A DNA stretch of 64,000 nt from Kiritimatiellia bacterium (GCA_017447805.1 JAFSMR010000001.1:36371-100370); one strand, 5' to 3'. Counted from the stretch's first letter, positions 37,352 to 61,913 are shown. The notes: generated by a model not told the origin, from the letters alone. Numbers and translations are program-made.

Positions 37352-37427
37352 GCGAGCTTAACTCAGTTGGTAGAGTGCCACCTTGCCAAGGTGGTTGTCG
37401 AGGGTTCGAGTCCCTTAGCTCGCTCCA
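37352..37427 (+). tRNA. tRNA-Gly (GCC)
   Basis: Cloverleaf folds: acceptor GCGAGCT/AGCTCGC; anticodon stem CCACC/GGTGG with loop TTGCCAA; T-loop GGTTCGAGTCC; encoded CCA. Confidence 0.9.
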
Positions 37428-37446
37428 ATCTCCGAAGCAGTGAAAT

Positions 37447-37523
37447 GGGGGCGTAGCTCAGCTGGCTAGAGCAAGTGACTCTTAATCACTGGGTCCAGGG
37501 TTCGAATCCCTGCGCCCCTACCA
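37447..37523 (+). tRNA. tRNA-Lys (CTT)
   Basis: Acceptor GGGGGCG/CGCCCCT; anticodon stem AGTGA/TCACT with loop CTCTTAA; T-loop GGTTCGAATCC; encoded CCA. Confidence 0.9.
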
Positions 37524-37531
37524 TTTAAACC

Positions 37532-37607
<76 letters not shown>

Positions 37608-37985: not shown

Positions 37986-38420
37986 CTATGCCAGTCCAAT
38001 CTCCCGCTCCTGTTCGCTCCACAGGTCGCTCTTGATGTTGAAGAGCCTCTCCGTTGAGAAATCGTCGGGCAGCGTCTTGGCTATGACCGCCCGGAGGATC
38101 TTCGGCGAGAGGTTGGCGAGGCGCAGAACCCGAACCACATAGGGTCGATCCATCTTCAGCCCCTCTGCAAGCTCCTTCACGTCTCCAAACGCTCCGGTTT
38201 CAAGGAGTCGCGTCCACTCTCTGGCACGGGCGAAGAGCCGTATGAGCGTTCCTGATTCGTCTAGGTCGATGTCATTTACCTCTCCTTGTCCCGCAACAAC
38301 GAGTCGGCGGCGTCCGCAGACCGTCTGGAACCGGATTGGAATCGATACGAGAACATTCCCGTCCTCAGTTTCCATGATATTCATGCTTGAATTCCTCCAT
38401 GAGGCGTTTGTCGCCATCAA
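37986..38420 (-). CDS. hypothetical protein with ParB-like HTH segment
   Basis: 144 aa. DVKELAEGLKMDRPYVVRVLRLANLSPKILRAVI matches the spacing of the ParB/Noc HTH (ELAExLGxSRSxVxNxLRLLxLPxxV). Overlaps the recombinase 3' end by 56 nt in another frame. Confidence 0.4.
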   Translation of the reverse strand: MMATNASWRNSSMNIMETEDGNVLVSIPIRFQTVCGRRRLVVAGQGEVNDIDLDESGTLIRLFARAREWTRLLETGAFGDVKELAEGLKMDRPYVVRVLRLANLSPKILRAVIAKTLPDDFSTERLFNIKSDLWSEQEREIGLA

Positions 38421-40149: not shown

Positions 40150-41226
40150 TCATCTTTTTTCATCGCTTTCACCTTCTTCTTGACGGTTTCTGCGCGGCGC
40201 GAATCCGAAATTCCGGCATATCTCGCGGAGTGGGCGCAACAAGTTGAACTTGAACGCCGAATAGGTAACGCCCATCTCCTTCGCGGCATCCTCTATGCTC
40301 AGCCCATCGAGGAAAAGCAAGTTGAACGCTTTTTCATATCGCTTCCCCCTGGGAGACGCAAGATAGTCCCTGAGAACCTGAATGTCCATGTTCTCGTCGC
40401 ACTCCCTGACGCTTTTCCGCCCGTCCTCTGCATGCTCGTCGAGATGCATCATGAACGATTCGGGGTCAAGTTCGCCGTCCGGCGTAACTGCGTAGATTGA
40501 AACGGTGAACAAATCGCCAAGCCGCTTGAGCGCATACCGCGAACGCTTCATGTCCAGCACCTTCATGCCAAGCGCGTTCTTGATGAACGTCAAAAGCGAA
40601 GCGGGTGAGCGTCCTTCATTGCCTGGGCGGGTCTCGTCGTATTTTGCCGCGAGAGACCAACAGGCATATTGCAGCGTGCGCTGGTAGTCATCGCGGTCAG
40701 CCTTGCAGTCCTGGATGCGTCCTTCCCGTATCGCGGACTGCGCCAGACAGTCGAACGTCTGCATCAGCTCTTTCTGGACTTCTTCGGAGAAGAGCATCTT
40801 CCTTACGGGCTTCTTTACCAGAGGAAAGAGCTTCTTGGCGAGTTCGCGGCGCTTTCGTGCCTCCTCCTCGGGCGAGAGATTCTCCTCCGGCTTGTGGAGC
40901 CACCACCTCTTCGACTGGTCCCTCCTGTTGGCTTTGTGTCCGTCTCCAAACAGCAGCAGCCATTCGGATAGATCTCTGACACCATTGGATGGATCGTCGT
41001 ATAGCTCCCGGTATGGATGCAGTGTTATCTTCTGCCCGTTGTCCTCGTAGGAGGATACCCATATGGATGAATGACTGCGCTTGCGATGGTTCTCGGTCAC
41101 TTTCGCTGGTGCCGGCATGAATCGCTTTGACGGCGAGACTATGACGCGATCAGGGAAATCGGCTTCCATCCGAAGCCGTCTCTGGTGATACGCTCGCCTT
41201 ATCTGGATAGGGATGGTGGTGGTCAT
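40150..41226 (-). CDS. sigma-70 region-4-like HTH protein (putative element regulator)
   Basis: 358 aa. C-terminal LDGLSIEDAAKEMGVTYSAFKFNLLR resembles sigma-70 region 4 / LuxR-type HTH. Acidic and basic helical N-terminal body. Confidence 0.45.
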   Translation of the reverse strand: MTTTIPIQIRRAYHQRRLRMEADFPDRVIVSPSKRFMPAPAKVTENHRKRSHSSIWVSSYEDNGQKITLHPYRELYDDPSNGVRDLSEWLLLFGDGHKANRRDQSKRWWLHKPEENLSPEEEARKRRELAKKLFPLVKKPVRKMLFSEEVQKELMQTFDCLAQSAIREGRIQDCKADRDDYQRTLQYACWSLAAKYDETRPGNEGRSPASLLTFIKNALGMKVLDMKRSRYALKRLGDLFTVSIYAVTPDGELDPESFMMHLDEHAEDGRKSVRECDENMDIQVLRDYLASPRGKRYEKAFNLLFLDGLSIEDAAKEMGVTYSAFKFNLLRPLREICRNFGFAPRRNRQEEGESDEKR

Positions 41227-41652: not shown

Positions 41653-42501
41653 TTACCTCTTTACGGGCTTAAGCGAAGCTGCTATCATGCGCTTCTTCTT
41701 TTTGATCTTAGTACGACGTGCGATGGTTTTCGACGATGTCCGATGTTGCCCCTCGACTTTTTGCCTAATGGTTGATATCTCGCGCCAGCCCCAATGGTTT
41801 GCAACTTCTCTAATCTTGAGGCATTCATCATACAAGGCACCTCCAGGCTTGGCATCCTTCATTATGTATTCCGCGACCGCAAAACGTCCGAACAGTTTGA
41901 GTTCTTTTCTGCGTTTCTTGAGAGCATTGCCTATCTCATGGGTAAACCGCTCGGCGGCGGAACGATCCTCAAAAATATCCTTTTCATCAAACAGATAGGA
42001 TGGGCGTCCGCATTTGTCTATGATTTCTCCCTTGGCATCGGCTATCGCCGCAATAATTCTGTCTTCAGGTGATGAGTGTGCGCCTGGGCAGGTGGCGTTG
42101 CTGTTACGACAATTGACTTCAGAGAGAGAAGGTACGCACTTTGTCGCCTCGTCCAAGTATTGACCTGAAATGGTCGTGTCGTTCAGCAAGAGCATGAAAC
42201 TGCGGTAGTTGAAGTCCAGCAGTTCTACGTCCTCCGGCTGGATTTCCCTGTCCTCCCACGGTTCGCAATGTCGGCAGAAGAAAGTGTACGACGGATTGTC
42301 TGCACTGCCATTTCTTGTGACGGATGCTCGCTCTCCGCATTCAGGGCAGCATATCTCGGACTTGAATTTGCCGTTGAACTTCAGCACGCCTCTTTCCACG
42401 AGCAGCAAGTCGTCTTTCTCAAGGAGATTGGCCGGGACTTGGAAGGCGCGGCAATTGCGCTCTTCCAGCTGGCATTTTATCAGTAGCAGGACACCGGTCA
42501 T
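41653..42501 (-). CDS. hypothetical protein with N-terminal C4 zinc ribbon and Lys/Arg-rich C-terminal tail (cargo gene 3)
   Basis: 282 aa. CCPECGERASVTRNGSADNPSYTFFCRHCEP. C-terminal KTIARRTKIKKKKRMIAASLKPVKR. No recognisable catalytic motif. GC about 51%. Confidence 0.5.
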   Translation of the reverse strand: MTGVLLLIKCQLEERNCRAFQVPANLLEKDDLLLVERGVLKFNGKFKSEICCPECGERASVTRNGSADNPSYTFFCRHCEPWEDREIQPEDVELLDFNYRSFMLLLNDTTISGQYLDEATKCVPSLSEVNCRNSNATCPGAHSSPEDRIIAAIADAKGEIIDKCGRPSYLFDEKDIFEDRSAAERFTHEIGNALKKRRKELKLFGRFAVAEYIMKDAKPGGALYDECLKIREVANHWGWREISTIRQKVEGQHRTSSKTIARRTKIKKKKRMIAASLKPVKR

Positions 42502-43784
42502 TTCCTGTACTCCCTGGCGAGGATTTCCTTCTTGTACTCGTTCTTGATCCCGTTCTCCGCCAGAAGATCCAGTATGAGCTTCTTGTGGCGCTCGTCGTTG
42601 CAGTTGTGGACAATGCTTCGCTCCGTGACCTTGGCAATGTATGTTTTCGTCTTGGCCTTGTCAGGCGTTGCGCCAATTTCAGTCATCACCTCCTGGACGA
42701 GACGACGTTCCTCAACATATATGTCTATCGTGAACTCCCACATTTTGGGCTTCCGCCACTCGATGGGGAATTTGGCGCATGACTCTTGGAGCCGGTCGAA
42801 GATATCGTCTGTCTTGCAGCGGTGTGTTAGTTCGTCTACGATTCCGCTGGAAGGGTTGGTGATTTCCAATGTCACACCACTAACTCTAGCGAGGGCTACT
42901 TGATTGGATGACACCTTCAACCGGAAATCGCGGGAGTACGTCGGATTGAACTTTGCTATTGGATACTCTTCAATTGGCTTGTCGATTATGTCGGTTGCCA
43001 GCATGAATTTCGCAAAGAGCTGGGCGATCCTCTTCGTCTGCGAGGCGCTGAAGAAGCACTTGATGCGGAAGAACGGCTGTGGTTCGCGGTAATAGATGAT
43101 TGTGAAGCCCTCGGCGTTGTGATCCAAGGCAAGCACGAACTTGCCTTCATCGTCGTACTGCTCCACGTTCTTTGGGAAAGCGTTTACATGAAACACGTAT
43201 CTGACGCAGTTTCCGAGGTCTTCCATGTCCGTGTGGACAAAGGACACCATCGTATGTTCGCGGGCCATGAACTTCAAGAACTCATCCTCGAACGCCTTTC
43301 GCTGGAGGTCGCTGGCTATGTCGCTGGGTGGTTGCGCCACATACTTCTTCTGCCCTCCAAGGCCGAAGGCAATCTTGATGATTGCGTTCTTTCGGAGGAA
43401 CTCCCACAGCTCTCGCATATTCAAGAACACCCATGAAACCATCTGGTGAATGTCGGGCCTCTCCGTTTGCCAGTCGCCAAACGCCTCCGAAAGCCGTCCG
43501 CTCTCCTTGATCTTGTCGATTATGTAGCGCCCTCTCTTCTGATCTCGGCAGACCGCATTGATATCGAACAGTAGCGTGCAGATTTCCGCAAAGCTCTTCT
43601 TGGCCGCTTCGTTTCCGTTTTTTGCAATGTTTGTCAATTCGACGCAAAGGTCGTCCTCGAACGTCTCCGAGAATTCAGACCAGTTGGTTTGAGTCTCGAC
43701 CTTGCAGACGTTGAACATCTGCTTGAGGTATTTTCTGCCAATAAGCTTCAGTAGTGTCTTTAACGCTGGTGCCGAATCTGCCAT
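42498..43784 (-). CDS. hypothetical 428-aa protein (cargo gene 2), no recognisable domain
   Basis: Overlaps the downstream gene by 4 bp (ATGA). GC about 49% against about 65% for the flanking phage genes. Confidence 0.5.
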   Translation of the reverse strand: MADSAPALKTLLKLIGRKYLKQMFNVCKVETQTNWSEFSETFEDDLCVELTNIAKNGNEAAKKSFAEICTLLFDINAVCRDQKRGRYIIDKIKESGRLSEAFGDWQTERPDIHQMVSWVFLNMRELWEFLRKNAIIKIAFGLGGQKKYVAQPPSDIASDLQRKAFEDEFLKFMAREHTMVSFVHTDMEDLGNCVRYVFHVNAFPKNVEQYDDEGKFVLALDHNAEGFTIIYYREPQPFFRIKCFFSASQTKRIAQLFAKFMLATDIIDKPIEEYPIAKFNPTYSRDFRLKVSSNQVALARVSGVTLEITNPSSGIVDELTHRCKTDDIFDRLQESCAKFPIEWRKPKMWEFTIDIYVEERRLVQEVMTEIGATPDKAKTKTYIAKVTERSIVHNCNDERHKKLILDLLAENGIKNEYKKEILAREYRK

Positions 43785-43814: not shown

Positions 43815-45116
43815 TCAGATTGCAGCCGGATCTAGCAGGAAGTCGTAGATGCTGATGTTCAGGACGCCGCTTTCGTCAAACCATTTCCGCCCGACGTCCT
43901 TTCGGACCACTACCTTGCGGAAGCTGTCGCCCGTTAGCGAGAACGGCTTGAGTTCCGACATGCGCTTCTCGTCCGTCGTCATTGCGTATGCCGACTGGAC
44001 GTACACCCGCTCGCCGGAACGGTTCACGACGAAGTCGATCTCGCGAACCTTGCGAACGGTCTTTCCCTGCGCGTCCTTTTCATATGACGTCACGACCCCC
44101 ACATCGACCGAGTACCCGCGCCGTACAAGTTCGTTGTAGATGATGTTCTCCATTATGTGCGTCTCCTCCTGCTGCCTGAAGCCGCACCTTGCGTTCCTCA
44201 AGCCGATGTCCTCGCAGTAGTACTTCTGCGGATAGTCGAAATAGGTGTGTCCCTTGACATCGTACCGCTTCGCCTCCGAGAACAGGAATGCGTCCTCAAG
44301 ATGGCCAATGTACGCCGCGACGGTCTTGACGGTCGCGGTCGCCCCCTGTTCTTCCGCAAGGGACTTTGCGATGTTGTTTGCGTTCGTGAGGGAACCTACG
44401 GACGAGCAGAGGAAGTCGAGTATGCGAGCCATCACATCGGGACGGTCGACGCGCTTGCGCTCTACGATGTCCTTGAGATAGACTTCGTCGAAAAGACGTT
44501 TCAGGTACTCCTCGCGGCTGGCATCGTTTGGGCGGGTGAGCGCAAAAGGCATGCCGCCGAAACGCATGTAGTCGTCAAGCGCGTCCCGCTTGTCCACGGA
44601 AACGGCCGAAAGATACTCGGCGAAGGATAGCGGATGGACTCGGATTTCGTCGCCCCGTCCGCGAAACTCCGTCTTGATGTCGGAAGAAAGCATCTTCGAG
44701 TTGGAACCCGTCACGTACACGTCAAGATTCTCCATGTGGAGAAAGCCGTTCAGGGCATCGTAGAACGTTATCTTCTCGCCCTCGGGAGAATGAGGGTTCG
44801 GAACCTTGTCGGACATCTGGATTTCGTCAATGAACAGGTAGCGCCTGTTGGTCGCGTTGCTCATCCATGAATCCACATGGGCGGAAAGCTCAAGAGGGTT
44901 CCTGAATCTTGCCGAATTGATGTCGTCGAGTTCTATCGTGAGAATGTCCTCTGGAAGAACACCGCTATCTATCAGGTGTCGCCGAAACAGGGTCTTCAGC
45001 AGATAAGACTTTCCACATCGCCTTATTCCCGTGATGACTTTGACCTGCCCGTTCCACATGAGTGAAATGAGCTTGTCGAGGTAGAAGTCTCTCTTTATCT
45101 CCTTGAAATTATCCAT
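43815..45116 (-). CDS. AAA+ ATPase (AAA_14) with C-terminal DUF4143 restriction-endonuclease-like domain (cargo gene 1)
   Basis: Walker A GIRRCGKS, Walker B LFIDEIQ. C-terminal EIDFVVNRSGERVYVQSAY is a PD-(D/E)XK-like core as in DUF4143. Confidence 0.75.
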   Translation of the reverse strand: MDNFKEIKRDFYLDKLISLMWNGQVKVITGIRRCGKSYLLKTLFRRHLIDSGVLPEDILTIELDDINSARFRNPLELSAHVDSWMSNATNRRYLFIDEIQMSDKVPNPHSPEGEKITFYDALNGFLHMENLDVYVTGSNSKMLSSDIKTEFRGRGDEIRVHPLSFAEYLSAVSVDKRDALDDYMRFGGMPFALTRPNDASREEYLKRLFDEVYLKDIVERKRVDRPDVMARILDFLCSSVGSLTNANNIAKSLAEEQGATATVKTVAAYIGHLEDAFLFSEAKRYDVKGHTYFDYPQKYYCEDIGLRNARCGFRQQEETHIMENIIYNELVRRGYSVDVGVVTSYEKDAQGKTVRKVREIDFVVNRSGERVYVQSAYAMTTDEKRMSELKPFSLTGDSFRKVVVRKDVGRKWFDESGVLNISIYDFLLDPAAI

Positions 45117-51791: not shown

Positions 51792-52010
51792 TTTTTCTTC
51801 GCGTGAAAAAACAAAAAGCAAAACTAATTCCAGGGTCGCTCCGAGGGCGGAATTAGTTTTGTTTTGCCTAGGAAAAACAAAACAAAAAACTACTTCCGGC
51901 CAGGGCGGAAACGGGTCGATTTAGTTTTGTTTTTTTGCGCTCCCTTTAGGGGCGCAGAAAAATCAAAACTAATCCGTGTCCGCCCAAGCTAAAATCGGCC
52001 TGTTTTGGCG
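51792..52010. repeat. repeat-rich region downstream of the primase: reiterated AAAACTAAT/TTAGTTTT elements in both orientations and GC hairpins (gcgctccctttaggggcgc); putative phage origin or terminator cluster
   Basis: ttagttttt...aaaactaattcc...ggaattagttttgtttt...atttagttttgttttttt...atcaaaactaatcc read directly. Confidence 0.6.
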
Positions 52011-52287
52011 TGGAGCGAAAAAGCCGACCGCTCGGGCAACCGAAAGAGGCCGATGACGAGGCCCCGAAAACCGCCCGAACGGTCGACGGCGGACATTGTG
52101 CCATAACCCGCACGACAAGTCAACCGCCCGAATCGGGAAATAACGGCTCGGGTCGGGCGGGGTGGGACGTAACGTCCCTGCGAGGCTACGGTTCCTCCCT
52201 GCCCCCTCTCAAAGGCAGGGCGCGGGAAGGAGCGCAACTCCAGGACAGACTTTCTTTCCCGACGACGTAATTTTCAAGGAGGTAAAA

Positions 52288-54516
52288 ATGCAAGGAAAAC
52301 AAGATGAAATGACCTATGCAACCGTGTGTTCGGGAATCGAGTGCATGAGCGCAGCGGTAGCGCCGCTCGGCGGCTGGAAGCCGGTGTTCTTCAGTGAGAT
52401 CGAGCCGTTCCCGTGTTCGCTACTGAAGCACCGGTACCCGACGGTTCCAAACCTTGGGGACATGACGAAAATCACAGCCGAGAAGATCGGCGAAGAGAAA
52501 TGGAGGATCACAAATGGAACAGATGTCATTGAACTTGCCGGGCGTCTCGGCTGTCTCGCCGGCGGCACGCCGTGCCAGGACGTGTCGGTCGCGGGGAAGC
52601 GCGCGGGCATGGCCGAAGGGAGCGGAACCCGCTCCAGCCTTGCCTTCCACTTTGCAAGGCTTTGTCGAGAGCTACAACCCAGATGGGTGCTTTGGGAGAA
52701 CGTTCCGGGAGTTCTCACCTCAAACGGAGGACGCGACTTCGCGCACTTCGTCAAGTCGATTGGGGAATGCGGGTATTCTCTTGCCTACAGGACTTTGGAC
52801 GCTCAATGGGTGCGAGTGGACGGGCTGCCCCGCGCAGTTCCACAGAGACGCCGGCGTGTGTGGCTTGTCGGACATCTTGGAGACAGTTGGCGAACACCTG
52901 CGGAAGTACTGTTTGAGCCTCAAGGCGTGCGCGGGGATACTCCGCCGTGCCGCATCGCGGGGCAAGGATTTACCAGCGAGACTGGCGGCGGCGCTGAAGG
53001 CGCAGATCGCCCGGTTCCAACGAACTCAAACGGCGGCGACGTGATGCCCGCCCTCACCGCGCGGGACTTGGAGGCGCGGATGACCGGGCAGGCTGATCGC
53101 TCGGGCGGATACGTCATGCAGCCGTCGGGCTTCGACCCCTACGAGCCTGGCGGCGTCAAGTCGGACAGTCCAGAAGTCTCGGGCGCTCTCGTCAATGGCT
53201 CTTCGCCGGGTTTCCACAACGCGGTGTGCTTTGAGAACCACCAGACGGATGCAAGGACGACGGAGGTTGATGTCGCCCCGACTATGGGTGCAACGCACAA
53301 CGCGCAGGCGGCGAACAACAACCCGCTTGTCGTTGTGCCGACCGACGTGTTCGGCAAGGTCGCGCACGCCATGAACAAGAACGGCGACGGCGAGAAATAC
53401 GCGAAGATCGAGGTCGCCGAGACGAGAAACACATTCTCGAATTCGGAGGCGCGGACACAGGAAGTTGTCGTGCAGCCCAAGGACGGCGTAGTAGCCATCG
53501 ACATGGACAAGAACAAGCCGACGAACGCCGACAAGCCTGTCCGCAAGGGCGGCGCTGGATTTGGCGTCTCGGAGAAAGGCGCGTCCTACACGCTCACGGC
53601 GAGAGACCAGCACGCGGTCGCATACGCCATCGACTCTATGGGGTCCAACGCGATGAAGTCGAAGAACCCGAAGAGCGGATGTCGGGAGGTTGAGTGTGCG
53701 CCGACTCTGACGACGGTCGATTCCGCGCCGGTCAAGCACCAGGGCGGCACAGCGGTCGTGGCGTTCCTTCCGGGCAACTCCAAGAAGGCTCGTTCCATCG
53801 CCGCCGACGAGGAGGTTTCGCCTACGCTCATGCGGACGCAGGGCGAGAGCGGCAACAAGGTCGCTGTAGCGACGGAGTGCGTCGGCGTGTTCGACATGGA
53901 GGCAGGGAAGTCGAGCGGTCGGGCGGACACGTCCGGCGTTTCGCCCACGATCCTCGCGTTGCACGGCACAGACCCGCACGCGGTGTGCATCGGCTTCAAC
54001 GCGGAACCGGGAACGCACGTCCAGACCCCGCACGACAACCTTGGCGACACCCTCGCTGTGAGCCACAAGTGCGGCGTCGCAATCGGCCTCGACCGCGCCT
54101 CGTTCAACCAGGGGAAGAACGCGAAGTTCGGCTTCTCGGTCGAAGAGGAATGTGCGCCCACGGTCGTGTCCAAGGGACCTGGCGCGGTCTCGTTCGAGCC
54201 GGGGATCGCCAAGCGCGAGGGAGCGTCGCACCGCTTCTCGGACGAGGTGACGTCGACGCTGCGCTCCGACATGGGCGACAACCTCCCGGCGGTCGCCGTG
54301 GACTACATCGTCCGCCGCCTGACCCCGCTCGAGTGCGAAAGGCTCCAGGGGCTGCCGGACGGATACACGCTGATTCCGCATCGCGGGAAGCCTGCGGAGG
54401 AGTGTCCCGACACGCCAAGGTACAAGGCGCTGGGCAACGGCTGGGCGGTCAACTGCGCCCGCTGGATATGCCAGCGAATCCAGAAACACGAACAGGAGAA
54501 CACACATGGAAACTAA
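52288..54516 (+). CDS. DNA (cytosine-5)-methyltransferase with an exceptionally long (about 470 aa) reiterated variable region; candidate multispecific MTase
   Basis: Motif I CSGIE, motif IV GGTPCQDVSVAG, motif VI ENVPG, motif VIII QRRRRVWLVG, C-terminal motifs IX/X (RRLTPLECERLQGLPDGYT, GNGWAVN). Start at the ATG after AAGGAGG. Confidence 0.85.
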   Translation: MQGKQDEMTYATVCSGIECMSAAVAPLGGWKPVFFSEIEPFPCSLLKHRYPTVPNLGDMTKITAEKIGEEKWRITNGTDVIELAGRLGCLAGGTPCQDVSVAGKRAGMAEGSGTRSSLAFHFARLCRELQPRWVLWENVPGVLTSNGGRDFAHFVKSIGECGYSLAYRTLDAQWVRVDGLPRAVPQRRRRVWLVGHLGDSWRTPAEVLFEPQGVRGDTPPCRIAGQGFTSETGGGAEGADRPVPTNSNGGDVMPALTARDLEARMTGQADRSGGYVMQPSGFDPYEPGGVKSDSPEVSGALVNGSSPGFHNAVCFENHQTDARTTEVDVAPTMGATHNAQAANNNPLVVVPTDVFGKVAHAMNKNGDGEKYAKIEVAETRNTFSNSEARTQEVVVQPKDGVVAIDMDKNKPTNADKPVRKGGAGFGVSEKGASYTLTARDQHAVAYAIDSMGSNAMKSKNPKSGCREVECAPTLTTVDSAPVKHQGGTAVVAFLPGNSKKARSIAADEEVSPTLMRTQGESGNKVAVATECVGVFDMEAGKSSGRADTSGVSPTILALHGTDPHAVCIGFNAEPGTHVQTPHDNLGDTLAVSHKCGVAIGLDRASFNQGKNAKFGFSVEEECAPTVVSKGPGAVSFEPGIAKREGASHRFSDEVTSTLRSDMGDNLPAVAVDYIVRRLTPLECERLQGLPDGYTLIPHRGKPAEECPDTPRYKALGNGWAVNCARWICQRIQKHEQENTHGN

Positions 54517-55765
54517 CAGGATGAAGGTCGTGAACGTCCCCGTCTCGGAGATCATTCCCTACGAGAACAACCCGCGTATCAACGAGGGCGCGGTCGAGCA
54601 GCTGGCGAACATAATCGCCACCCTCGGCTTCAGGAATCCCGCCGTCCTCAACAAGGACAAGGTCATCATCGAGGGTCACACGCGCCTTCTCGCCGTGAAG
54701 AAGCTCGGCTGGGAGACGATGCCCTGCATCATCGCCACCGACCTGACGCCGGAGCAGGAACAGGCCTTGCGCATCGCCGACAACAAGATTGCTGAAATCG
54801 CGGAGTGGGACGAGGACAAGCTCAAGGTCGAACTCGCCGCGTTGCAGGAGGCGGGGTTCGACCTTTCGCTTCTCGCCTTTGGCGACGACGAGCTGGACGA
54901 CCTTTTGGGCGGCGAGGCGGGGACGCACGGCGAGACGGAGCCTGACGCGGTTCCCGAGACGCCGGAGATTCCCGTCTCGACCCCTGGCGAAGTCTACCAG
55001 CTCGGAAAGCACCTCCTCGTCTGCGGAGACTCGACGAAGCCCAACGACGTCGACAAGGTGTGCAAGGCGGACGAGGCGAACCTCTGGCTCACGGACCCGC
55101 CGTACAACGTGGACTACCACGGCTCGGACGGACAGTCGATCCAGAACGACTCGATGGAGGACACGAAGTTCCGCGAGTTCCTTCGCGCGGCGTTCGGCTG
55201 CGCGGAGAAGCGCCTCAAGCCGGGCGGCTCGTTCTACATCTTCCACGCGGATTCCGAGGGCTACAACTTCCGGGGAGCGTGCTTTGACGTGGGGCTTAGC
55301 GTGAGGCAATGCCTCGTCTGGAAGAAGAATTCGCTCGTCCTCGGACGGCAGGACTACAAGTGGATTCACGAACCCTGCCTCTACGGTTGGCGCGAGGGGG
55401 CGGCGCACGACTGGTACTCCGACTGTTCGCAGACGACAGTTATGGAGTTCAACAAGCCGAAGAAGAACGACCTCCACCCGACGATGAAGCCCGTCGAGAT
55501 GCTGTGCTACCTGATCGGCAATTCGTCGAAGCGCGGCGACATCGTCCTCGACACGTTCTGCGGTAGTGGCTCGACGCTCATCGCCTGCGAGAGGACGGGT
55601 CGCGTGTGTAGGGCCGTCGAACTCGACCCGAAATACTGCGACGTAATCCGCAAGAGGTGGGCGGAGTTCGTGCATGGGGAGGGATGCGATTGGCAATCGC
55701 TGACTCCCGTCGTCGGCACATCACCGGCGCCAGAAGCGGAGGATGCACACGATGAAGGTGCTTGA
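54506..55765 (+). CDS. ParB/Srx-like nuclease domain fused to N6-adenine/N4-cytosine DNA methyltransferase
   Basis: N-terminal ParB-like region (IIEGHTRLLAVKKLGW). MTase motif IV DPPY (LWLTDPPYNVDYHG). C-terminal FxGxG-type AdoMet motif DTFCGSGST. Confidence 0.8.
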   Translation: METNRMKVVNVPVSEIIPYENNPRINEGAVEQLANIIATLGFRNPAVLNKDKVIIEGHTRLLAVKKLGWETMPCIIATDLTPEQEQALRIADNKIAEIAEWDEDKLKVELAALQEAGFDLSLLAFGDDELDDLLGGEAGTHGETEPDAVPETPEIPVSTPGEVYQLGKHLLVCGDSTKPNDVDKVCKADEANLWLTDPPYNVDYHGSDGQSIQNDSMEDTKFREFLRAAFGCAEKRLKPGGSFYIFHADSEGYNFRGACFDVGLSVRQCLVWKKNSLVLGRQDYKWIHEPCLYGWREGAAHDWYSDCSQTTVMEFNKPKKNDLHPTMKPVEMLCYLIGNSSKRGDIVLDTFCGSGSTLIACERTGRVCRAVELDPKYCDVIRKRWAEFVHGEGCDWQSLTPVVGTSPAPEAEDAHDEGA

Positions 55766-56390
55766 ACTCTTCTCCGGGACGGGCGTCCTGTCGGCTGCGT
55801 TCAGGGAGCGCGGCCACAGGACGCTGACGGTTGATTGGGAGGAGTCGCACAAGCCCGACCTCAAGGCTGACATTGGAGCGCTGACTGCCGATGACATCGT
55901 TCGGCTGTTCGGCCGCCCCGACATCGTATGGGCAAGTCCCGACTGCACGACGTATTCCGTCATGTGCATCTCGCGCCACCGCGACGGCGTGAAGCCAAAG
56001 TCGGAGTACGCCGCGCAATGCGACAGGACAAACGCCCACGTGTGCGCCCTCATCTGCGAACTGAAGCCAAAGGCGTGGTTCATCGAGAACCCTGTCGGGA
56101 TGCTGCGGAAGATGCCGTTCATCCAGAAGCTGATGGAAGACACCGGTGGTCGCCGCCATACGGTGACGTACTGCCAGTACGGCGAGAGGCGGCAGAAGCC
56201 GACCGACATCTTCACGAACCACCCCGACCCGAAGTTCCGTCCGCCGTGCAGACGCGGCGACAAGTGCCACGATGCCGCGCCTCGCGGCTCCAGGACGGGG
56301 ACGCAGGGACTGAAAGGCAAGGCTCTGCGGGCGAAGCTCCCGGCGGAACTCTGTAGGCACGTCGTCCGCATCTGCGAGAGCCTCGTGTAA
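55752..56390 (+). CDS. minimal C5-MTase-like protein (about 212 aa) lacking a target-recognition domain
   Basis: Motif I ELFSGTG; motif IV-like SPDCTTYS (Cys retained, Pro to Asp); motif VI FIENPVG; motif VIII-like QYGERRQ. No TRD-length insertion. Confidence 0.6.
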   Translation: MKVLELFSGTGVLSAAFRERGHRTLTVDWEESHKPDLKADIGALTADDIVRLFGRPDIVWASPDCTTYSVMCISRHRDGVKPKSEYAAQCDRTNAHVCALICELKPKAWFIENPVGMLRKMPFIQKLMEDTGGRRHTVTYCQYGERRQKPTDIFTNHPDPKFRPPCRRGDKCHDAAPRGSRTGTQGLKGKALRAKLPAELCRHVVRICESLV

Positions 56391-56570
56391 GTGCGGAAAG
56401 TGTGCAAACTCCGCGATTGTGTCGTGTAGACGTTTTCCACTTCACGACACAACTGTGCAGGAAACACACTCCCATATGCGGCGCAATTGGGCCATATAAG
56501 CCCGATTTACGCCGTATCTTCTTGAAAATCCAAGTAATACAGCCCGACAGAGGTGTGAGAGATCTATACG

Positions 56571-56588
56571 TCGACATTGACATGTCGA
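56571..56588. promoter_or_regulatory. operator-like palindrome TCGACAT-tgac-ATGTCGA upstream of the phage metK
   Basis: Seen directly. Overlaps a TTGACA hexamer. Confidence 0.3.
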
Positions 56589-56663
56589 GGATCCACACTA
56601 TCGGGCGACACTCTACGACAAACCAGCAAACCGCCCCGCAAAATCGGGGCAGAAAGGCGAAAA

Positions 56664-57689
56664 ATGGCAAAGAAAATCCAATCTTCGGAATACTGCACGC
56701 TCGGGCATCCCGACAGGACGTGCGACTATATCGCGAGCTATATCCTGGATCGCTACATGGCGGCCGATAGGAACTCGAGAGTCGCGCTGGAGGTTCAGCT
56801 CAAGGACGAGTTCTGCACGATATCGGGCGAGGTTACGAGCAACGCACGGTTCGGAACCGACGAAATCGCGGCATTTGCGCGCGAGGCGGTCGAGAAGATC
56901 GGCTACACGCCGGAGTACCAGGCGAAGTTCGGAGCTGCGAATGTCGTGGCGGGCCAAGAACTCGTCGTGGAGACACACATATCCCACCAGTCCGGCGACA
57001 TCGCGCAGGGAGTGAACCGCGACAGCTGGGGCGACCAGGGGATATTCTGGGGACTTGCGGTGGACGAGCCGAAAATGGGCTACCTTCCGAAGGACTACTG
57101 GCTCGCCCGCAAGTTGGGGCAGGGAATCGCCGGGAAGCTGGGCGGGCTGGACGTGAAGACGCTTGTCACGCTGGAGGACGGCAAGCCCGTCGAGTGCTAT
57201 GTCGCCATCCCGCTTACGCCGGGAGACGACGACGCTCCCGTCTTCGCGGCGGCAAAGGCGATGGTCGGCGAGGATTGCCGCATCGTTGTGAACGGGACGG
57301 GGCGGTACGTGACGCACGGCTCTGTCGGCGACTGCGGAACGACGGGCAGGAAGCTCGTCGTGGACTTCTACGGCGGGAACTCCCGCATCGGCGGCGGCTC
57401 TCCCTGGGGCAAAGACCCGACGAAGGCGGACGTCACATTGAACGTCTACGCCCGCAGGTGCGCGCTTGAGGGGATGAAGCGGTACGGACTTCCCGAGATG
57501 CGCTGCGCGATATCGTGCTGCATCGGCCGCCGCGACATCCGCGTCTCGCTGTTCGACAGGGAGATGAACCTCGTCGAGGAGCGGATCGAGTCCGATCCCG
57601 CGAGCCACGTCATCGAGCTTCTCGGACTCGACAAGCCCGTCTATGCCGACACGTGCGCTCGCGGCCTCTTCGGATACGAGACGCTTTAG
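56664..57689 (+). CDS. metK: phage-encoded S-adenosylmethionine synthetase homologue (divergent, 341 aa)
   Basis: GHPDRTCDYIASYILD, GDQGIFWGLA, GGGSPWGKDPTKADVT align with the host MetK motifs at 26678-27871 but are strongly diverged. Confidence 0.75.
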   Translation: MAKKIQSSEYCTLGHPDRTCDYIASYILDRYMAADRNSRVALEVQLKDEFCTISGEVTSNARFGTDEIAAFAREAVEKIGYTPEYQAKFGAANVVAGQELVVETHISHQSGDIAQGVNRDSWGDQGIFWGLAVDEPKMGYLPKDYWLARKLGQGIAGKLGGLDVKTLVTLEDGKPVECYVAIPLTPGDDDAPVFAAAKAMVGEDCRIVVNGTGRYVTHGSVGDCGTTGRKLVVDFYGGNSRIGGGSPWGKDPTKADVTLNVYARRCALEGMKRYGLPEMRCAISCCIGRRDIRVSLFDREMNLVEERIESDPASHVIELLGLDKPVYADTCARGLFGYETL

Positions 57690-58147
57690 CGGACGGAGGC
57701 GAAGAGCCCGCGACCGGCCTTGCGGAAGCGCGAGGCGTCGCCCTTGTCCTTGATCTCGCGGATGATCGCGGAATAGAGTGTCTGTTCCGGCGTCTTGCCG
57801 CCCTTGGGCGTCCAGAGGCCGGACTCCTTCGCCTTTTCGATCATCGCCCTGACCGCCAGCGGCTCGTCGGACTGTTCCAGTACGGCGGCTGCGGCGTTCA
57901 GGAGCGAGAGTCCTTTCTCGGGCGAGGTCGCCGCAGGCTTCACCGCCTTTGGCTTCGCGGCCTTGGGCGCGGCAGTCGCGGCAGCGGTCTCGCCGTCCCG
58001 CGATTTGAGCGACTTGACTGTGAGCGTCTTGCCGCTCCTCGTCTCGACCGTCCAGCCGTTCTCGGCCTTCGCATTGACGCGAACCTCGACGAGGTTGCGT
58101 CCGACCTTGGTGAATGCGCGGTCGCCCGCCTTGTATTCCTTGCTCAT
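57686..58147 (-). CDS. HARE-HTH (HB1/ASXL/RpoE-delta-type winged helix) domain protein
   Basis: C-terminal SLLNAAAAVLEQSDEPLAVRAMIEKAKESGLWTPKGGKTPEQTLYSAIIREIKDKGDASRFRKAGRGLFA. Lys/Ala-rich linker. Confidence 0.6.
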   Translation of the reverse strand: MSKEYKAGDRAFTKVGRNLVEVRVNAKAENGWTVETRSGKTLTVKSLKSRDGETAAATAAPKAAKPKAVKPAATSPEKGLSLLNAAAAVLEQSDEPLAVRAMIEKAKESGLWTPKGGKTPEQTLYSAIIREIKDKGDASRFRKAGRGLFASVR

Positions 58148-58287
58148 TGCATCGTTCCTTTCTCATTCTTTTGCGTCCGAGTTCCCCATGAACCCGGAAC
58201 GGCGCACATATTCGCTCTTATTCCGAGACAAGTCAACGGGGTATCGGAAAGTATTTCAACAAACTTCAAAAAAAAAGGAGGCCAGCC

Positions 58288-58488
58288 ATGCCAGAACAGA
58301 GCCGCGACCACATTACGAGGGAGAACTTCGTGACTGCCATGCGGAGGTCGGGGTCACGCACCCTGACGCTCGAACGGCTCGAAGCCGACATCGCCGCCGG
58401 CGCTCCCGTCAACGCGGACGGGACGATCAACATCCTGAAGTACGTCGCGTGGATTGCAAAGGAGCTTGGAGATGACGGTCAACGTTAA
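58288..58488 (+). CDS. small hypothetical protein (66 aa) preceding the terminase; possible small-terminase-like accessory
   Basis: AAAGGAGG RBS. Position immediately 5' of TerL. Confidence 0.3.
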   Translation: MPEQSRDHITRENFVTAMRRSGSRTLTLERLEADIAAGAPVNADGTINILKYVAWIAKELGDDGQR

Positions 58489-60760
58489 GAAGATGAAGCC
58501 CGTGGAGATGGTGCGCTTCCTGAACTCCACGGAGCTTGGGACGGTTCTCTCCGCCGCGATGGTGTACAGGCACTTCTCCGAGGCGGGCTACCGCATCGCC
58601 TCGACGGAGGATTCGCGTTGTCTGAGCTTCTACCGCTACGCGGCGTGGCTCATCGACAAGCGCAACACGCCGCCACCGGCCATCGAGACCGATCCAGGGG
58701 CGTACACGGCCCATCGCGAGGCTGCGGCGCAGCGGCAGGCAGACCTCTCCCTTGCGGGACGCGACATCGGCGAACTTCCCGAAGTCGCCGATCCGGAAAG
58801 GAAGGAGGCGTGCCGTTTCGACTTCCGCAAGTTCTGCGAGACATACTTTCCCGAAGTGTACAACCTCGAATGGTCGGACGACCACCTGCGGGCAATCGAG
58901 AAGCTTCAGAAGGCAGTCCTCGAAGGCGGGCTCTTCGCACTTGCGATGGCGCGCGGAAGCGGCAAGTCGAGCCTGACGGAAACAGCCGCTATTTGGGCTA
59001 TGGCCTACGGACACCGCGAGTTCATCGTCATAATCGGCGCAAGCGAGGGTGCGGCGCTCGAAATGCTCGACTCCATCAAGACGGAGCTTGAGGTCAACGA
59101 GCATCTCCAGGAGGACTTCCCGGAGATGGTGTATCCTATCGCAAGACTTGAGGGAATCGCCAACCGCTGCGCGGGGCAGCTCTACAAGGGCGAGCGGACG
59201 CGCATTGCGTGGACTGCGAGCGAGATCGTCCTTCCTACAATCGCTGGCGCGGCATCGTCTGGCGCAATCGTCCGCGTCGCCGGCATCACGGGCCGCATTC
59301 GCGGCATGAAGTACAAGCGCCCCGACGGGCGGACTATCCGCCCGGAGTTCGTCATTGTCGATGACCCGCAGACGAGCGAATCCGCCGGCTCCGCCGAGCA
59401 GACGAGAAAGCGCGTCCGCGTCCTCGCGGGCGACGTCCTCGGCTTGGCCGGCCCCGGTCGCAAGATCGCGGGCGTCATGCCCTGCACGGTTATCCGCCCA
59501 GGCGACATGGCCGAGCAGATGCTCGACCGCTCGAAGCATCCCGAATGGAACGGAGAGCGTTGCCGGATGCTCTACAAGTTCCCGAAGAACGAGGAGTTGT
59601 GGAACCGCTACGCAGACCTCCGCGCAGACGAACTGCGGGAGAAAGGCACGTTCGCAAAGGCCACGGCGTTCTACGCCGCGTACAGGAAGGAGATGGACGA
59701 GGGCGCTGTCGTGGCGTGGCCCGCCCGCTATAACCACGACGAAATCTCCGCCGTGCAGCACGCGATGGACCTGAAGCTCACCGACGAGGCCGCGTTCTGG
59801 GCGGAGTACCAGAACGAGCCGTTGGCGGAGGACTTGGGGACGGAGGAGCAGTTGACGCTGGACGGTGTGTCCTCTCGCGTAAACGGACACTCCCGTCTCG
59901 GCGTTCCCGTCCAGGCGACGCACGTGACGGCCTTCATCGACGTCCAGAAGACGATGCTGTTCTACTGCATCGTCGCGTGGGACGATGACTTCACGGGACG
60001 CGTCATCGACTACGGCGAGTGGCCCGACCAGAAGCGTCGGTTCTTCACGCTGAACGACGCGAACGTCACGCTCCAGCAGAAGTTCCCTCGAAGCGGACTC
60101 GAAGGATGCCTGTACGAGGGGCTGAAAAGCCTTACGGGGGAAATCCTCGGACGCGAGTATTTCCGCGATGACGGCGCTGCTATGCGGATCGAGAAGTGCC
60201 TCATCGACGCGAACTGGGGACAATCGACGGACACCGTGTACCAGTTTTGCCGCGAGTCGGAGTACGCAAGCGTCCTCACGCCTTCGCACGGCAAGTACAT
60301 CGGCGCAAGTTCCAAGCCGATGGGCGAGTACAAGAAGGCAATCGGCGACAGAGTCGGTCTCAACTGGCGGATGCCGAACGTCAGGGGCAAACGGGCGATA
60401 CGGCACGTCGTCTATGACACGAACTTCTGGAAGTCGTTTGTGGCGACGAGGCTTCTCACCTCGACTGGCGACCGAGGGGCTTTGACGCTCTTCGGGAGAA
60501 GCCCGGCTGACCATCTGCTCTTCGCGGAACATCTCACCGCCGAGTACCGGGTCAAGACCGAGGGGCGCGGACGCCGCGTGGACGAGTGGAAGATGCGCCC
60601 CGACGCCAAGGACAACCACTGGTGGGACTGCGTCGTCGGAAGCGCGGTCGCGGCTTCGATGTGCGGATGCGTCCTCGCGGGGACTATGACGGACGGAAAA
60701 CCGAAAGCTGCGAAACCCAAGGTGAAACTTTCGGAACTTCGGCGATTGAAAAATTTTTAA
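58472..60760 (+). CDS. phage terminase large subunit (lambda gpA-like)
   Basis: Walker A MARGSGKSS. Size and position upstream of gpW and portal. C-terminal nuclease region with acidic residues. Confidence 0.8.
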   Translation: MTVNVKKMKPVEMVRFLNSTELGTVLSAAMVYRHFSEAGYRIASTEDSRCLSFYRYAAWLIDKRNTPPPAIETDPGAYTAHREAAAQRQADLSLAGRDIGELPEVADPERKEACRFDFRKFCETYFPEVYNLEWSDDHLRAIEKLQKAVLEGGLFALAMARGSGKSSLTETAAIWAMAYGHREFIVIIGASEGAALEMLDSIKTELEVNEHLQEDFPEMVYPIARLEGIANRCAGQLYKGERTRIAWTASEIVLPTIAGAASSGAIVRVAGITGRIRGMKYKRPDGRTIRPEFVIVDDPQTSESAGSAEQTRKRVRVLAGDVLGLAGPGRKIAGVMPCTVIRPGDMAEQMLDRSKHPEWNGERCRMLYKFPKNEELWNRYADLRADELREKGTFAKATAFYAAYRKEMDEGAVVAWPARYNHDEISAVQHAMDLKLTDEAAFWAEYQNEPLAEDLGTEEQLTLDGVSSRVNGHSRLGVPVQATHVTAFIDVQKTMLFYCIVAWDDDFTGRVIDYGEWPDQKRRFFTLNDANVTLQQKFPRSGLEGCLYEGLKSLTGEILGREYFRDDGAAMRIEKCLIDANWGQSTDTVYQFCRESEYASVLTPSHGKYIGASSKPMGEYKKAIGDRVGLNWRMPNVRGKRAIRHVVYDTNFWKSFVATRLLTSTGDRGALTLFGRSPADHLLFAEHLTAEYRVKTEGRGRRVDEWKMRPDAKDNHWWDCVVGSAVAASMCGCVLAGTMTDGKPKAAKPKVKLSELRRLKNF

Positions 60761-60821: not shown

Positions 60822-61913
60822 ATGCGATACGGAAGCGTGTGCAGCGGAATCGAGGCTGCGAGTGTCGCATGGCGGCCCCTCGGCTGGCGTTGCGCGTTCG
60901 TCTCCGAAGTAGAGCCGTTCGCGTCGGAAGTGCTGAAACACCGTCTGCCGAGGGTGCCTAACCTCGGAGATTTTACGAAAATTGAGAAAGGAGGATATGA
61001 TGGAGACATCGACCTCCTTGTCGGCGGGACGCCCTGCCAATCCTTCTCAACGGGAGGAAAACGTGGCGGAATCGCCGACCCTCGCGGCAACCTCGCCATC
61101 GAGTTTGTCCGACTGGCTGAAAGGACGGATGCGAGGTGGGTGGTCTGGGAGAACGTTCCAGCCGTGCTTGCCATCAATGGGGGACGAGACTTCGCCGCGT
61201 TTCTCTCCGAACTCGTCGGATGGGACGTCAAAGTCCCGGACGACGGGTGGGGAAACTCTGGCGTCGTCACCAACGCCCCCGGACGCTTCGGCGTTTCGTG
61301 GCGAGTGCTGGACGCTCGATATACCCGAGTTTCCGCATTTCCAAGGGCGGTGCCGCAGCGAAGGCGTCGTGTCATCCTTGTCGGATGCCGTGATCGCTGG
61401 CAGAGCGCCGCAGAGGTACTGCTTGGCGGCGAACTATGCGGAGGCGATGCTTGCCCGAGCCGCGAGGCTGGGGTACGCGCTGCCGCCGACGCTGGAGAAT
61501 GTGCTTCGGGAGAGTGCTTCCCGATAGATATGATGAACATCGAGGGACGCACCAAGTGCCTCAAGACGAAGTGCTACGACGAGGCGGGAACGGCGATGTA
61601 TACGCTCCGCTCCAGCCACGTGAATGCGGTCTGCACACCATGCCAGCTGCGGCGGCTTCTGCCGGTCGAATCGGAGCGGCTCATGGGCTTTTCTGACGGC
61701 TGGACGGACATTCCGTGGAAAGGCAAGGCGCACGCACCCGACGGATTCCGCCACAGGGTGTGCGGGAACTCGATGTGCGTAAACGTCATGCGCTGGATCG
61801 GCGAGAGGATATCCGCCGTCGCAGCGGGAAAGGAATTTGAAGACTATGGACGAGAAGTCTCTCGAAGAGGCGATGGAGCGGCTGCTCACTTCGCCCAAGG
61901 AGGTGGAGGTTGA
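60822..61913 (+). CDS. DNA (cytosine-5)-methyltransferase (fourth MTase, monospecific-size)
   Basis: CSGIE, GGTPCQSFSTGGKRGG, ENVPAV, QRRRRVILVG, GNSMCVNVMRW. The 3' end overlaps the gpW-like ORF, so the true stop is uncertain. Confidence 0.8.
   Translation: MRYGSVCSGIEAASVAWRPLGWRCAFVSEVEPFASEVLKHRLPRVPNLGDFTKIEKGGYDGDIDLLVGGTPCQSFSTGGKRGGIADPRGNLAIEFVRLAERTDARWVVWENVPAVLAINGGRDFAAFLSELVGWDVKVPDDGWGNSGVVTNAPGRFGVSWRVLDARYTRVSAFPRAVPQRRRRVILVGCRDRWQSAAEVLLGGELCGGDACPSREAGVRAAADAGECASGECFPIDMMNIEGRTKCLKTKCYDEAGTAMYTLRSSHVNAVCTPCQLRRLLPVESERLMGFSDGWTDIPWKGKAHAPDGFRHRVCGNSMCVNVMRWIGERISAVAAGKEFEDYGREVSRRGDGAAAHFAQGGGG

Follow-up and report, generated by a model that had tools for sequence, protein, structure and literature searches.

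Why should a temperate phage carry four DNA methyltransferases (MTases) and, directly behind three of them, a homologue of the enzyme that makes their methyl donor? This question is raised by a prophage in a 64,000-nt stretch of DNA (GCA_017447805.1, JAFSMR010000001.1:36371-100370; the window, to which all coordinates refer), which spans both the prophage and the bacterial chromosome in which it lies. The genes are read here, with a probability of roughly 55%, as an anti-restriction self-methylation cassette of a temperate phage, with its own MetK feeding S-adenosylmethionine (SAM) to the MTases. An initial annotation of the DNA had placed four co-directional genes in 52288-57689 and a further cytosine-C5 (C5) MTase at 60822, and all five were found there on the + strand:

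52288-54516, + strand: giant orphan C5-cytosine DNA MTase, 742 aa (PF00145 at 121 bits in two pieces; TIGR00675 at 123 bits)
54506-55765, + strand: beta-class N6-adenine/N4-cytosine DNA MTase fused to ParB_N (ParB-MTase), 419 aa (PF01555 at 92 bits; phrog_498 at 544 bits)
55743-56390, + strand: minimal C5-MTase-like protein (mini MTase), 215 aa (PF00145 at 23.5 bits, cutoff 22; phrog_757 at 138 bits)
56664-57689, + strand: compact phage-type SAM synthetase (MetK/MAT) homologue, 341 aa (PF00438 at 74 bits, PF02773 at 60 bits)
60822-61913, + strand: orphan C5-MTase with a single target recognition domain (TRD), 363 aa, between terminase and portal (PF00145 at 122 bits)

In such a cassette, the four orphan MTases would mark freshly replicated phage DNA ahead of packaging and thereby protect the progeny from the restriction enzymes of the next host. 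The 742-aa enzyme, with one C5 core and ~10-11 shuffled modules, would probably methylate many short sequences and work like the multispecific MTases of the Bacillus phages SPR, phi3T and H2, while the ParB-fused beta-class enzyme would add N6-methyladenine or N4-methylcytosine and the 215-aa and 363-aa enzymes would add further 5-methylcytosine specificities. The compact MetK would be active, making SAM from methionine and ATP in lytic growth and keeping the methyl-donor pool from limiting the methylation burst.

The cassette and its enzymes

The cassette lies where the replication module gives way to the packaging module, with a gpA-type terminase and a lambda-type portal downstream. The tight or overlapping spacing first described for it holds for the first three genes, which overlap by 11 nt (giant MTase/ParB-MTase) and 23 nt (ParB-MTase/mini MTase), but not for metK, which is separated from the mini MTase by a structured gap of 273 nt. 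No nuclease of the restriction-modification (R-M) type was found near the MTases in family and PADLOC scans, the neighbours being PrimPol/helicase, MetK, HARE-HTH, terminase and portal genes, and with no restriction endonuclease nearby all of the MTases are orphans.

The motif order of the ParB-MTase is that of the beta class, with TDPPYN (motif IV, at ~residue 196) ahead of FCGSGST (motif I, at ~345), and PADLOC matches the protein to MTase_II (PDLC03229) at 439 bits. Its ParB_N domain falls below the Pfam cutoff (19.3 versus 26.3 bits) but is matched by phrog_620 at 175 bits.

The 215-aa protein had been called minimal and C5-MTase-like; its identity was upheld by phrog_757 and by modelling with AlphaFold2 (AF2) and Foldseek, whereas it is no fragment but full-length, belonging to a stable family of ~212 aa that numbers thousands of proteins. 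Its homologues begin at MKVLELF, and this site corresponds to nt 55752. Motifs I (FSGTG), IV-like (SPDC), VI (ENP) and VIII-like (QYGERRQK) are recognizable. The AF2 model (predicted local distance difference test, pLDDT, 76; predicted template-modelling score, pTM, 0.79) points to a C5-family class I MTase fold, the 50 best PDB matches in Foldseek all belonging to the Dnmt/C5-MTase family, headed by M.HaeIII (E=2e-7), Dnmt2, M.HhaI and DNMT3. Throughout the family the sequence S-P-D-C (Cys68) is invariant, which places an Asp between the Pro and the Cys of motif IV, in a loop that is modelled at low confidence, and a conserved Cys/His cluster (C144, C169, C175 and H176) could bind zinc. The protein is 53-57% identical to the 'C-5 cytosine methylase I' of Bcp1/Deep Blue/BM15-type Bacillus myophages and of Xanthomonas phage Xoo-sp15, an unusual degree of conservation across very distant phages. 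The core of the 363-aa MTase, in turn, is 44% identical to that of the giant MTase (blastp).

The start of metK is the ATG at 56664, from which MAKKIQSSEY aligns with MAKHLFTSES of E. coli. The product matches the MetKs in the PDB at E ~1e-33, with ~33-38% identity to solved bacterial MetKs, and is matched over its full length by the phage family phrog_1569 (226 bits, residues 5-338 on positions 2-339 of a profile of 346). The phage MetKs of this family form a long-diverged compact clade; compact forms are seen elsewhere in the length of this profile, in the 353-aa protein of Phi1207.3 and in streptococcal Javan prophages, and homologues occur in 131 phage records. His14, Asp16, Glu42, Glu55, Gln98, Asp118, Lys165, Asp238, Arg244, Lys245, Lys265, Lys269 and Asp271 (numbered as in the mature E. 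coli protein), which we take to be catalytic or ligand-binding positions of the E. coli enzyme, are invariant in the window MetK and in 119 family members (59-93% identity), while Phe230 is replaced by Tyr in the window MetK. The initial annotation had named a catalytically dead MetK, missing such residues on alignment, as what would undo its proposal; since every catalytic residue is kept and is invariant in the 119 members, this is not the case at the level of the alignment, and the enzyme looks catalytically intact.

The modular cytosine methyltransferase

In the 742-aa enzyme motifs I-VIII lie within residues 1-195 (CSGIE, PCQ, ENV and QRRRR) and motifs IX-X within residues ~666-742 (RRLTPLE at ~676 and GNGWAV), and the protein aligns with M.HhaI in canonical order over motifs IV-VIII and IX-X (PCQ, ENV, QRRRR, RRLTPLE and GN). 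Its best PADLOC match is an orphan MTase model of 719 positions (PDLC03715), which indicates that long orphan C5-MTases are already in databases. Motif VIII (QRRRRVWLVG, ~186-195) is separated from motif IX by ~470 residues, a region that is far shorter in the 363-aa MTase, whose blastp alignment to the giant MTase leaves fewer than 20 residues uncovered between the two motifs. The region and the modules into which it divides are:

52873-54282, + strand: variable region of the giant MTase, residues 196-665, with ~10-11 tandem TRD-like modules
52999-53076, + strand: m1, TRD-like module
53077-53208, + strand: m2, TRD-like module
53209-53307, + strand: m3, TRD-like module
53308-53463, + strand: m4, TRD-like module
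53464-53616, + strand: m5, TRD-like module
53617-53730, + strand: m6, TRD-like module
53731-53850, + strand: m7, TRD-like module
53851-53973, + strand: m8, TRD-like module
53974-54072, + strand: m9, TRD-like module
54073-54186, + strand: m10, TRD-like module
54187-54282, + strand: m11, TRD-like module

Each module ends in a motif of the TL type, (A/S)-(P/S/Y)-T-(L/I/V/M). In the wider form (A/S/T/G)(P/S/Y/D)T(L/I/V/M), which was defined post hoc, it has eight matches in the variable region against 0.5 expected, in addition to looser copies; the last copy is located 17 residues ahead of motif IX, the spacing of Thr250-Leu251 in the TRD of M.HhaI. When a hidden Markov model (HMM) was built for each module with that module left out, m3, m6, m7 and m10 were recovered at p<=0.002 and m8 at p=0.03. 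Homologues of the giant MTase (74-98% identity, 669-816 aa) differ by insertions and deletions of whole modules, each with its own TL-type motif, and runs of invariant columns across them span m5-m7. The count of strict TL motifs was not correlated with protein length among 118 close homologues (Spearman -0.01), a test that is uninformative because looser motifs (ATL, GTL and NTF) mark the modules that are gained and lost.

Searched alone against 1.84 billion representative proteins, the variable region gave 1294 matches at E<=1e-3 in proteins of ~100 to 1236 aa; the coverage of the query is step-like, with the blocks ~436-495 and ~596-635 common to ~100-140 representatives, and the matched stretches (median 57 aa) have peaks of starts and ends that fall on module boundaries. 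Nine of ten tested matches are PF00145 proteins, and where motifs were recognizable in the matched protein, 37 of 42 stretches fell into the interval from motif VIII to motif IX. The order of the stretches is not colinear with the query in 66 of 129 multi-stretch matches (for example P0373, P0454 and P0457), and a protein of normal length (P0429, 454 aa) carries window residues 421-517 in its own TRD region. Long MTases of Heliusvirales gut phages and MTases of Vibrio phages have modules in common with the giant MTase; a tblastn search of the variable region against 50,697 phage records gave no match in a Bacillus phage, so a relationship to the SPbeta group was not found. Reuse between motifs VIII and IX of hundreds of other C5-MTases implies selection on each module. 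By its sequence, the giant MTase has the multi-TRD architecture of the multispecific C5-MTases and is a candidate highly multispecific enzyme.

Inteins (Hint/LAGLIDADG) are found in three relatives of the giant MTase of 1097-1236 aa (P0082, P0380 and P0418), and the large terminase is ~1120 aa instead of ~768 aa in two related loci, L002 (10850-14209) and L112 (5050-8412), probably also owing to an intein. In some relatives the slot of the 363-aa enzyme holds stop-to-stop open reading frames (ORFs) of ~550-900 aa (L110, 14674-17010; L111, 12212-14956; L115, 4957-7476; and L094, L112, L103, L104, L020 and L022). Since long versions also fill this slot, expansion of the TRD array may occur in both MTase slots.

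Conserved synteny, restriction pressure and alternative explanations

Related loci were collected via the terminase (80) and via MetK (43), with three further look-ups of MetK homologues on long contigs. The lineage shares the backbone PrimPol ... ParB-MTase - HARE-HTH (- strand) - TerS - TerL - portal, in which MetK, where present, always lies between the ParB-MTase and HARE-HTH genes and the 363-aa-type C5-MTase, where present, between the large terminase (TerL) and the portal; the giant and mini MTases are confined to a subclade. Dozens of related contigs repeat this gene order, and the arrangement is therefore not due to chance. In the 59 assessable loci, those in which the upstream region is covered, the ParB-MTase is present by construction with or without MetK, and MetK and an extra C5-MTase occur together in 26, MetK alone in five, the C5-MTase alone in one and neither in 27, counts for which this phage's own proteins served as seeds, so that MTases of other classes in MetK-less loci may have been missed. 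The C5-MTase slot between terminase and portal is filled in 26 of 31 loci with MetK versus one of 28 without it (Fisher p=1e-10 for all loci; p=1.5e-5 for the TerL-anchored loci).

A stronger argument than this correlation within the lineage is that MetK adjoins MTases repeatedly in unrelated phages. In Streptococcus phage Javan3 the gene for MetK precedes those for an adenine MTase, a C5-MTase and then the terminase; in an Anaerosphaera Heliusvirales phage MetK is followed by a ParB-like protein of 413 aa, and in an Evtepia phage by an HNH gene and a DNA MTase.

A marked signature of restriction is seen across the phage-derived 45.2-64 kb of the window. Palindromes of 6 bp number 114, whereas a maximum-order Markov model predicts 289 (ratio 0.39), compared with 1.01+-0.03 for control sets of 64 random non-palindromic hexamers and 0.92 for the chromosomal flank. 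CCGCGG (18.8 expected), ATCGAT, CTGCAG, GAGCTC and TTCGAA are absent altogether, and CTAG occurs three times against 21.6 expected. Such strong avoidance of 6-bp palindromes indicates that the lineage is under heavy Type II restriction pressure, and site avoidance is combined in it with methylation. The phage part of 18.8 kb nevertheless holds ~1000 C-containing 4-bp palindromes; these are too frequent to avoid, which makes it reasonable to infer that short sites are the main targets of the MTases.

If short sites are covered, the demand could be estimated at ~10^3 methyl groups per genome copy. A bacterial cell holds very roughly 10^5 molecules of SAM. By this estimate the demand multiplied by the burst would be comparable to the cellular pool, and this would give a quantitative rationale for a phage MetK.

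The proposal of self-methylation with its own SAM supply, as made in the initial annotation, thus gains from the orphan status of the MTases, the intact MetK residues, the palindrome avoidance and the MetK-MTase adjacency in unrelated phages, and loses the correlation within the lineage, which amounts to about one event. As a whole it is plausible and partly supported, with the functional coupling of MetK to the MTases a hypothetical part of it.

Several observations weigh against this reading. The Fisher association was rejected as independent evidence, since all loci without MetK group as one clade in a neighbour-joining tree of TerL; the association corresponds roughly to one gain or loss and a few decouplings. 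The ParB-MTase occurs without MetK in 27 loci, so it works without a phage MetK, and MetK stands without an extra C5-MTase in five and the C5-MTase without MetK in one. The notion that methylation relaxes site avoidance was likewise rejected, avoidance being strongest in the genomes richest in MTases (palindrome ratio of 0.45 in relatives with the giant MTase, 0.54 in those with MetK but without the giant MTase and 0.63 in the MetK-less clade). As for MetK itself, its TIGR01034 score of 160 bits is under the equivalog cutoff of 309; the Pfam search of the window MetK gave no match to the central domain PF02772, which many family members have and which was weak in one scan; ~43 internal residues of E. 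coli MetK are missing across eight short gaps, as are the last 18 residues; the change R273V is invariant in the phage family; and metK lacks translational coupling to the MTase genes. Five of the ~10 modules of the giant MTase were not significant in the leave-one-out HMM test, and the AF2 model of this enzyme failed (mean pLDDT 33, and ~20-30 across the insert), so it gives no structural support to a TRD array.

An alternative that we regard as improbable is that some or all of the MTases act within the phage itself, as a packaging mark or in the timing of replication or expression; the ParB-MTase beside HARE-HTH and terminase is the foremost case. It would fit the invariance of these three genes in all of the 59 loci, in which the C5-MTases and MetK are accessory, and phage P1 provides a precedent in dmt, with Dam methylation at the pac site (PMC12707154); the persistence of strong palindrome avoidance despite many MTases is also in its favour. 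A multi-TRD array with fast module turnover, however, points characteristically to diversification driven by varied restriction systems rather than to one fixed regulatory site, and four MTases exceed what regulation would need.

MetK could also be a gene of lysogenic conversion, the expression of which from the prophage raises host SAM and thereby alters polyamines, autoinducer-2 (AI-2) signalling and methylation-dependent traits, with the MTases adjacent merely because the site permits insertion. The five loci that have MetK but no extra C5-MTase would agree with this, and the only experimental work found on a phage MetK concerns aggregation and biofilm formation of the host S. agalactiae (group B Streptococcus; PMC8223999). 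In that work, however, complementation was partial and, according to its authors, confounded by secondary mutations (PMC8223999). The metK gene studied here lies co-directionally inside the stream of lytic replication and packaging genes, outside the lysogeny/moron region, at least one MTase stands immediately upstream in every MetK locus of the lineage, and the adjacency recurs in unrelated phages; we consider lysogenic conversion unlikely.

A further possibility bears on the giant MTase: its insert could be a repetitive disordered spacer or a decayed remnant, leaving an enzyme that is monospecific, through its last module, or inactive. The low AF2 confidence over the insert and the five modules not above chance would be consistent with this, as would the lack of any match between the modules and TRDs of known specificity. 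Work from the Trautner laboratory is said to have found inactive 'pseudo' TRDs in the multispecific enzymes of Bacillus phages. The AF2 confidence is uninformative, however, since the alignment was shallow (48 near-identical sequences), the modules are strongly conserved, with the long invariant runs over m5-m7, and their reuse in hundreds of C5-MTases speaks for selection on each; a spacer or remnant thus has little probability in our view.

Distinctly unlikely, finally, is a role of MetK in counter-defence or competition, by restoring an attacked SAM pool or, as a divergent enzyme, by resisting inhibitors of the host MetK: the long divergence of the compact phage enzyme, its deletions and its invariant R273V would suit it, and phages do compete over SAM, the T3 SAMase cleaving SAM and inactivating the host MetK through heteropolymers, but a literature search for links of phage MetK to counter-defence found none in the library covered, PADLOC gave no match for MetK, no sign of a SAM-targeting system was seen in the neighbourhood and the recurrent adjacency to MTases would be left unexplained.

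The metK leader, known systems and the prophage setting

The gap ahead of metK contains a structured and conserved leader:

56391-56663, + strand: structured metK leader, 273 nt, between the stop codon of the mini MTase and the metK ATG
56398-56471, + strand: conserved leader element, 74 nt, with a GUGUG/CACAC closing stem, a variable hairpin and a 10-mer
56460-56469, + strand: invariant 10-mer GGAAACACAC in the metK leader

The minimum free energy of the leader is -99.6 kcal/mol (z=-5.15), and none of 200 shuffled sequences was as stable; further hairpins follow the 74-nt element, including GCCCCG..CGGGGC just ahead of the metK ribosome-binding site. The 10-mer is found on the coding strand 100-250 nt upstream of metK in ~24 loci, down to ~60% MetK identity, and does not occur in the relatives without MetK. 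A GTGTG further upstream pairs with it in 18 distinct sequences; the stable hairpin enclosed in this way varies in sequence by locus, and the pair flanking the closing stem covaries (A-T, C-G and T.G). The argument from covariation is confined to this stem because the two leader subtypes align poorly, RNAalifold across them giving a covariation term of only -0.42. No SAM riboswitch (SAM-I to VI or SAM/SAH) was detected by an Rfam cmscan of 56250-56750 at E<=10, which returned only a chance match to Parecho_CRE. The leader is a candidate for a new cis-regulatory RNA or promoter element: it may act in the manner of a riboswitch, serve for attenuation or processing, or belong to a promoter; the GGAAAC in it resembles a -35 box of the extracytoplasmic function (ECF) type. 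With a structured leader of its own, metK may be regulated apart from the MTases.

It is a tentative and rather doubtful proposition that both features hold together, namely that the giant MTase is hyper-multispecific, each of its ~10 modules having its own short site, and that metK stands under a conserved structured leader that has not been described. If so, the enzyme would have two to three times more specificities than any characterized multispecific MTase and would draw on a pool of TRDs exchangeable across phages of Planctomycetes-Verrucomicrobia-Chlamydiae (PVC) bacteria, gut Firmicutes and marine Vibrio, and the leader could be a new antitermination RNA or one that senses a metabolite (SAM or S-adenosylhomocysteine, SAH).

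The arrangement had been called unusual in the initial annotation, a view that published precedents do not sustain: the pairing of MetK with MTases has been in print for Phi1207.3, there together with the hypothesis of SAM supply, for Heliusvirales and for Lake Baikal phages. The S. pyogenes prophage Phi1207.3 encodes a SAM synthetase of 353 aa (orf29), an HNH protein (orf30), a ParB-like nuclease domain with DNA methylase of 410 aa (orf32) and a C5 methylase of 388 aa (orf33; Iannelli et al. 2014, PMC4260502), and its authors proposed the synthetase as the supplier of the methyl donor (PMC4260502). As in the window, the SAM synthetase, ParB-MTase and C5-MTase are co-directional just upstream of the small and large terminase and the portal, and a serine recombinase, a primase and an SNF2 helicase are present. 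However, MetK heads the cluster in Phi1207.3 and closes it in the window, the host belongs to the Firmicutes in the former and to the PVC group in the latter, and Phi1207.3 is without the giant multi-TRD MTase, the 215-aa mini MTase and the C5-MTase between terminase and portal; the window MetK is only ~31% identical to the streptococcal phage MetKs.

Among 1032 genomes of the Ca. Heliusvirales gut phages, K00558 (C5-MTase) is present in 67% and K00789 (SAM synthetase) in 58.9% (PMC11283538), but that study lists both simply under 'auxiliary metabolic genes' and analyses neither the TRDs nor the coupling (PMC11283538). In these phages MetK also lies near MTases upstream of the terminase, and several of their long C5-MTases share variable-region modules with the giant MTase at 24-35% identity, whereas the terminase and structural module differ and the predicted hosts are mainly Firmicutes. 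The Lake Baikal phage VP_139 carries a methionine adenosyltransferase and three methyltransferases, read as modulation of the SAM cycle (PMC7678222); it has an SAH nucleosidase, absent from the window phage, and was interpreted via methylotrophy and pyrroloquinoline quinone (PQQ) of the host, not via anti-restriction (PMC7678222).

The T3 SAM lyase, offered as a related precedent in the initial annotation, turns out to represent the opposite strategy. Its gene, too, is one by which a phage acts on the SAM pool where R-M and bacteriophage exclusion (BREX) systems are concerned; T3, however, destroys SAM and inactivates the host MetK, so that DNA is left unmethylated and SAM-dependent defences are disabled. 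The window phage, in contrast, appears to make SAM for self-methylation.

The giant MTase itself invites comparison with the Bacillus phage enzymes, which recognize several targets through several tandem TRDs (summaries in PMC8936443 and PMC12707154). Like M.SPRI, M.Phi3TI, M.H2I, M.Rho11sI and M.(phi)BssHII, it has one core with tandem TRDs between motifs VIII and IX, the order of which varies between enzymes, and, judged at the sequence level, it would share with them the role of a phage orphan through which many R-M systems are evaded by one enzyme. The Bacillus multispecific MTases have ~2-5 TRDs in ~440-500 aa, unlike the ~10-11 modules in 742 aa found here, and no similarity to them is detectable in the TRD region.

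The cassette is thus of a known type in a host group, the PVC bacteria, for which it had not previously been described, and the new points are the long shuffled TRD array, the conserved structured metK leader and the strong avoidance of 6-bp palindromes. The basic picture is unchanged, self-methylation by phages to evade restriction being long established. Phage-encoded MetK is very common, and the locus lends itself cleanly to the question of whether self-methylation is limited by SAM supply; the giant MTase represents a natural library of about ten TRD modules on a single catalytic core, which informs the evolution of C5 specificity by module shuffling and could yield new specificities for epigenetic tools.

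The remaining genes of the prophage and its surroundings that bear on the cassette are:

37352-37607: three tRNA genes
38365-39657, - strand: serine integrase, adjoining the tRNAs
40150-41226, - strand: sigma-70 region 4/ECF-like ORF, 358 aa, a prophage gene
43815-45116, - strand: AAA_14/DUF4143 ATPase (PADLOC candidate defence family PDC-S01, E=5.6e-112)
57686-58147, - strand: HARE-HTH protein, 153 aa (PF05066 at 48 bits), convergent with metK, the stop codons overlapping by 4 nt
58288-58488, + strand: putative small terminase, 66 aa, preceding the large terminase
58454-60760, + strand: large terminase of the gpA type (PF20454 at 84 bits, and synteny), marking the packaging module

The left 37 kb of the window (~51% GC) is chromosomal, with TrpE, TrpG/D, PriA, TyrRS, hexokinase and an Orn/Lys/Arg decarboxylase. 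From ~45 kb on the GC content climbs to 62% and the phage replication genes begin (PDDEXK nuclease, AAA_24, DUF669, RusA, an SNF2-type helicase and a PrimPol/AAA_25 primase-helicase). When 52000-58200 was searched at the DNA level against the 50,697 phage records, the matches were confined to short stretches of MTase genes at 64-71% identity; the phage therefore has no close relative among deposited phages. Because the homologues of the cassette are mostly from gut and rumen metagenome-assembled genomes labelled Kiritimatiellia, Lentisphaeria/Victivallales or Verrucomicrobiota, the host is most likely a PVC-group (Kiritimatiellia-like) bacterium.

The HARE-HTH gene stands at the same site in loci with and without MetK and is a constant partner of the ParB-MTase/terminase junction. 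HARE-HTH domains are linked to DNA-modification systems, and the protein may read the modification or regulate the cassette.

In a close relative a RelB/YafQ toxin-antitoxin pair is located just past the portal (L002/L003, 17576-18120), and relB-yafQ adjoins metK in the S. agalactiae prophage 12/111phiA (PMC8223999); its presence in both phages may be a coincidence. The AAA_14/DUF4143 ATPase lies in a prophage island of ~52% GC (~40-45 kb) together with two proteins without a family (41653-42501 and 42498-43784), and this island is possibly prophage-borne defence cargo. The ECF-like sigma factor at 40150-41226 could direct phage transcription.

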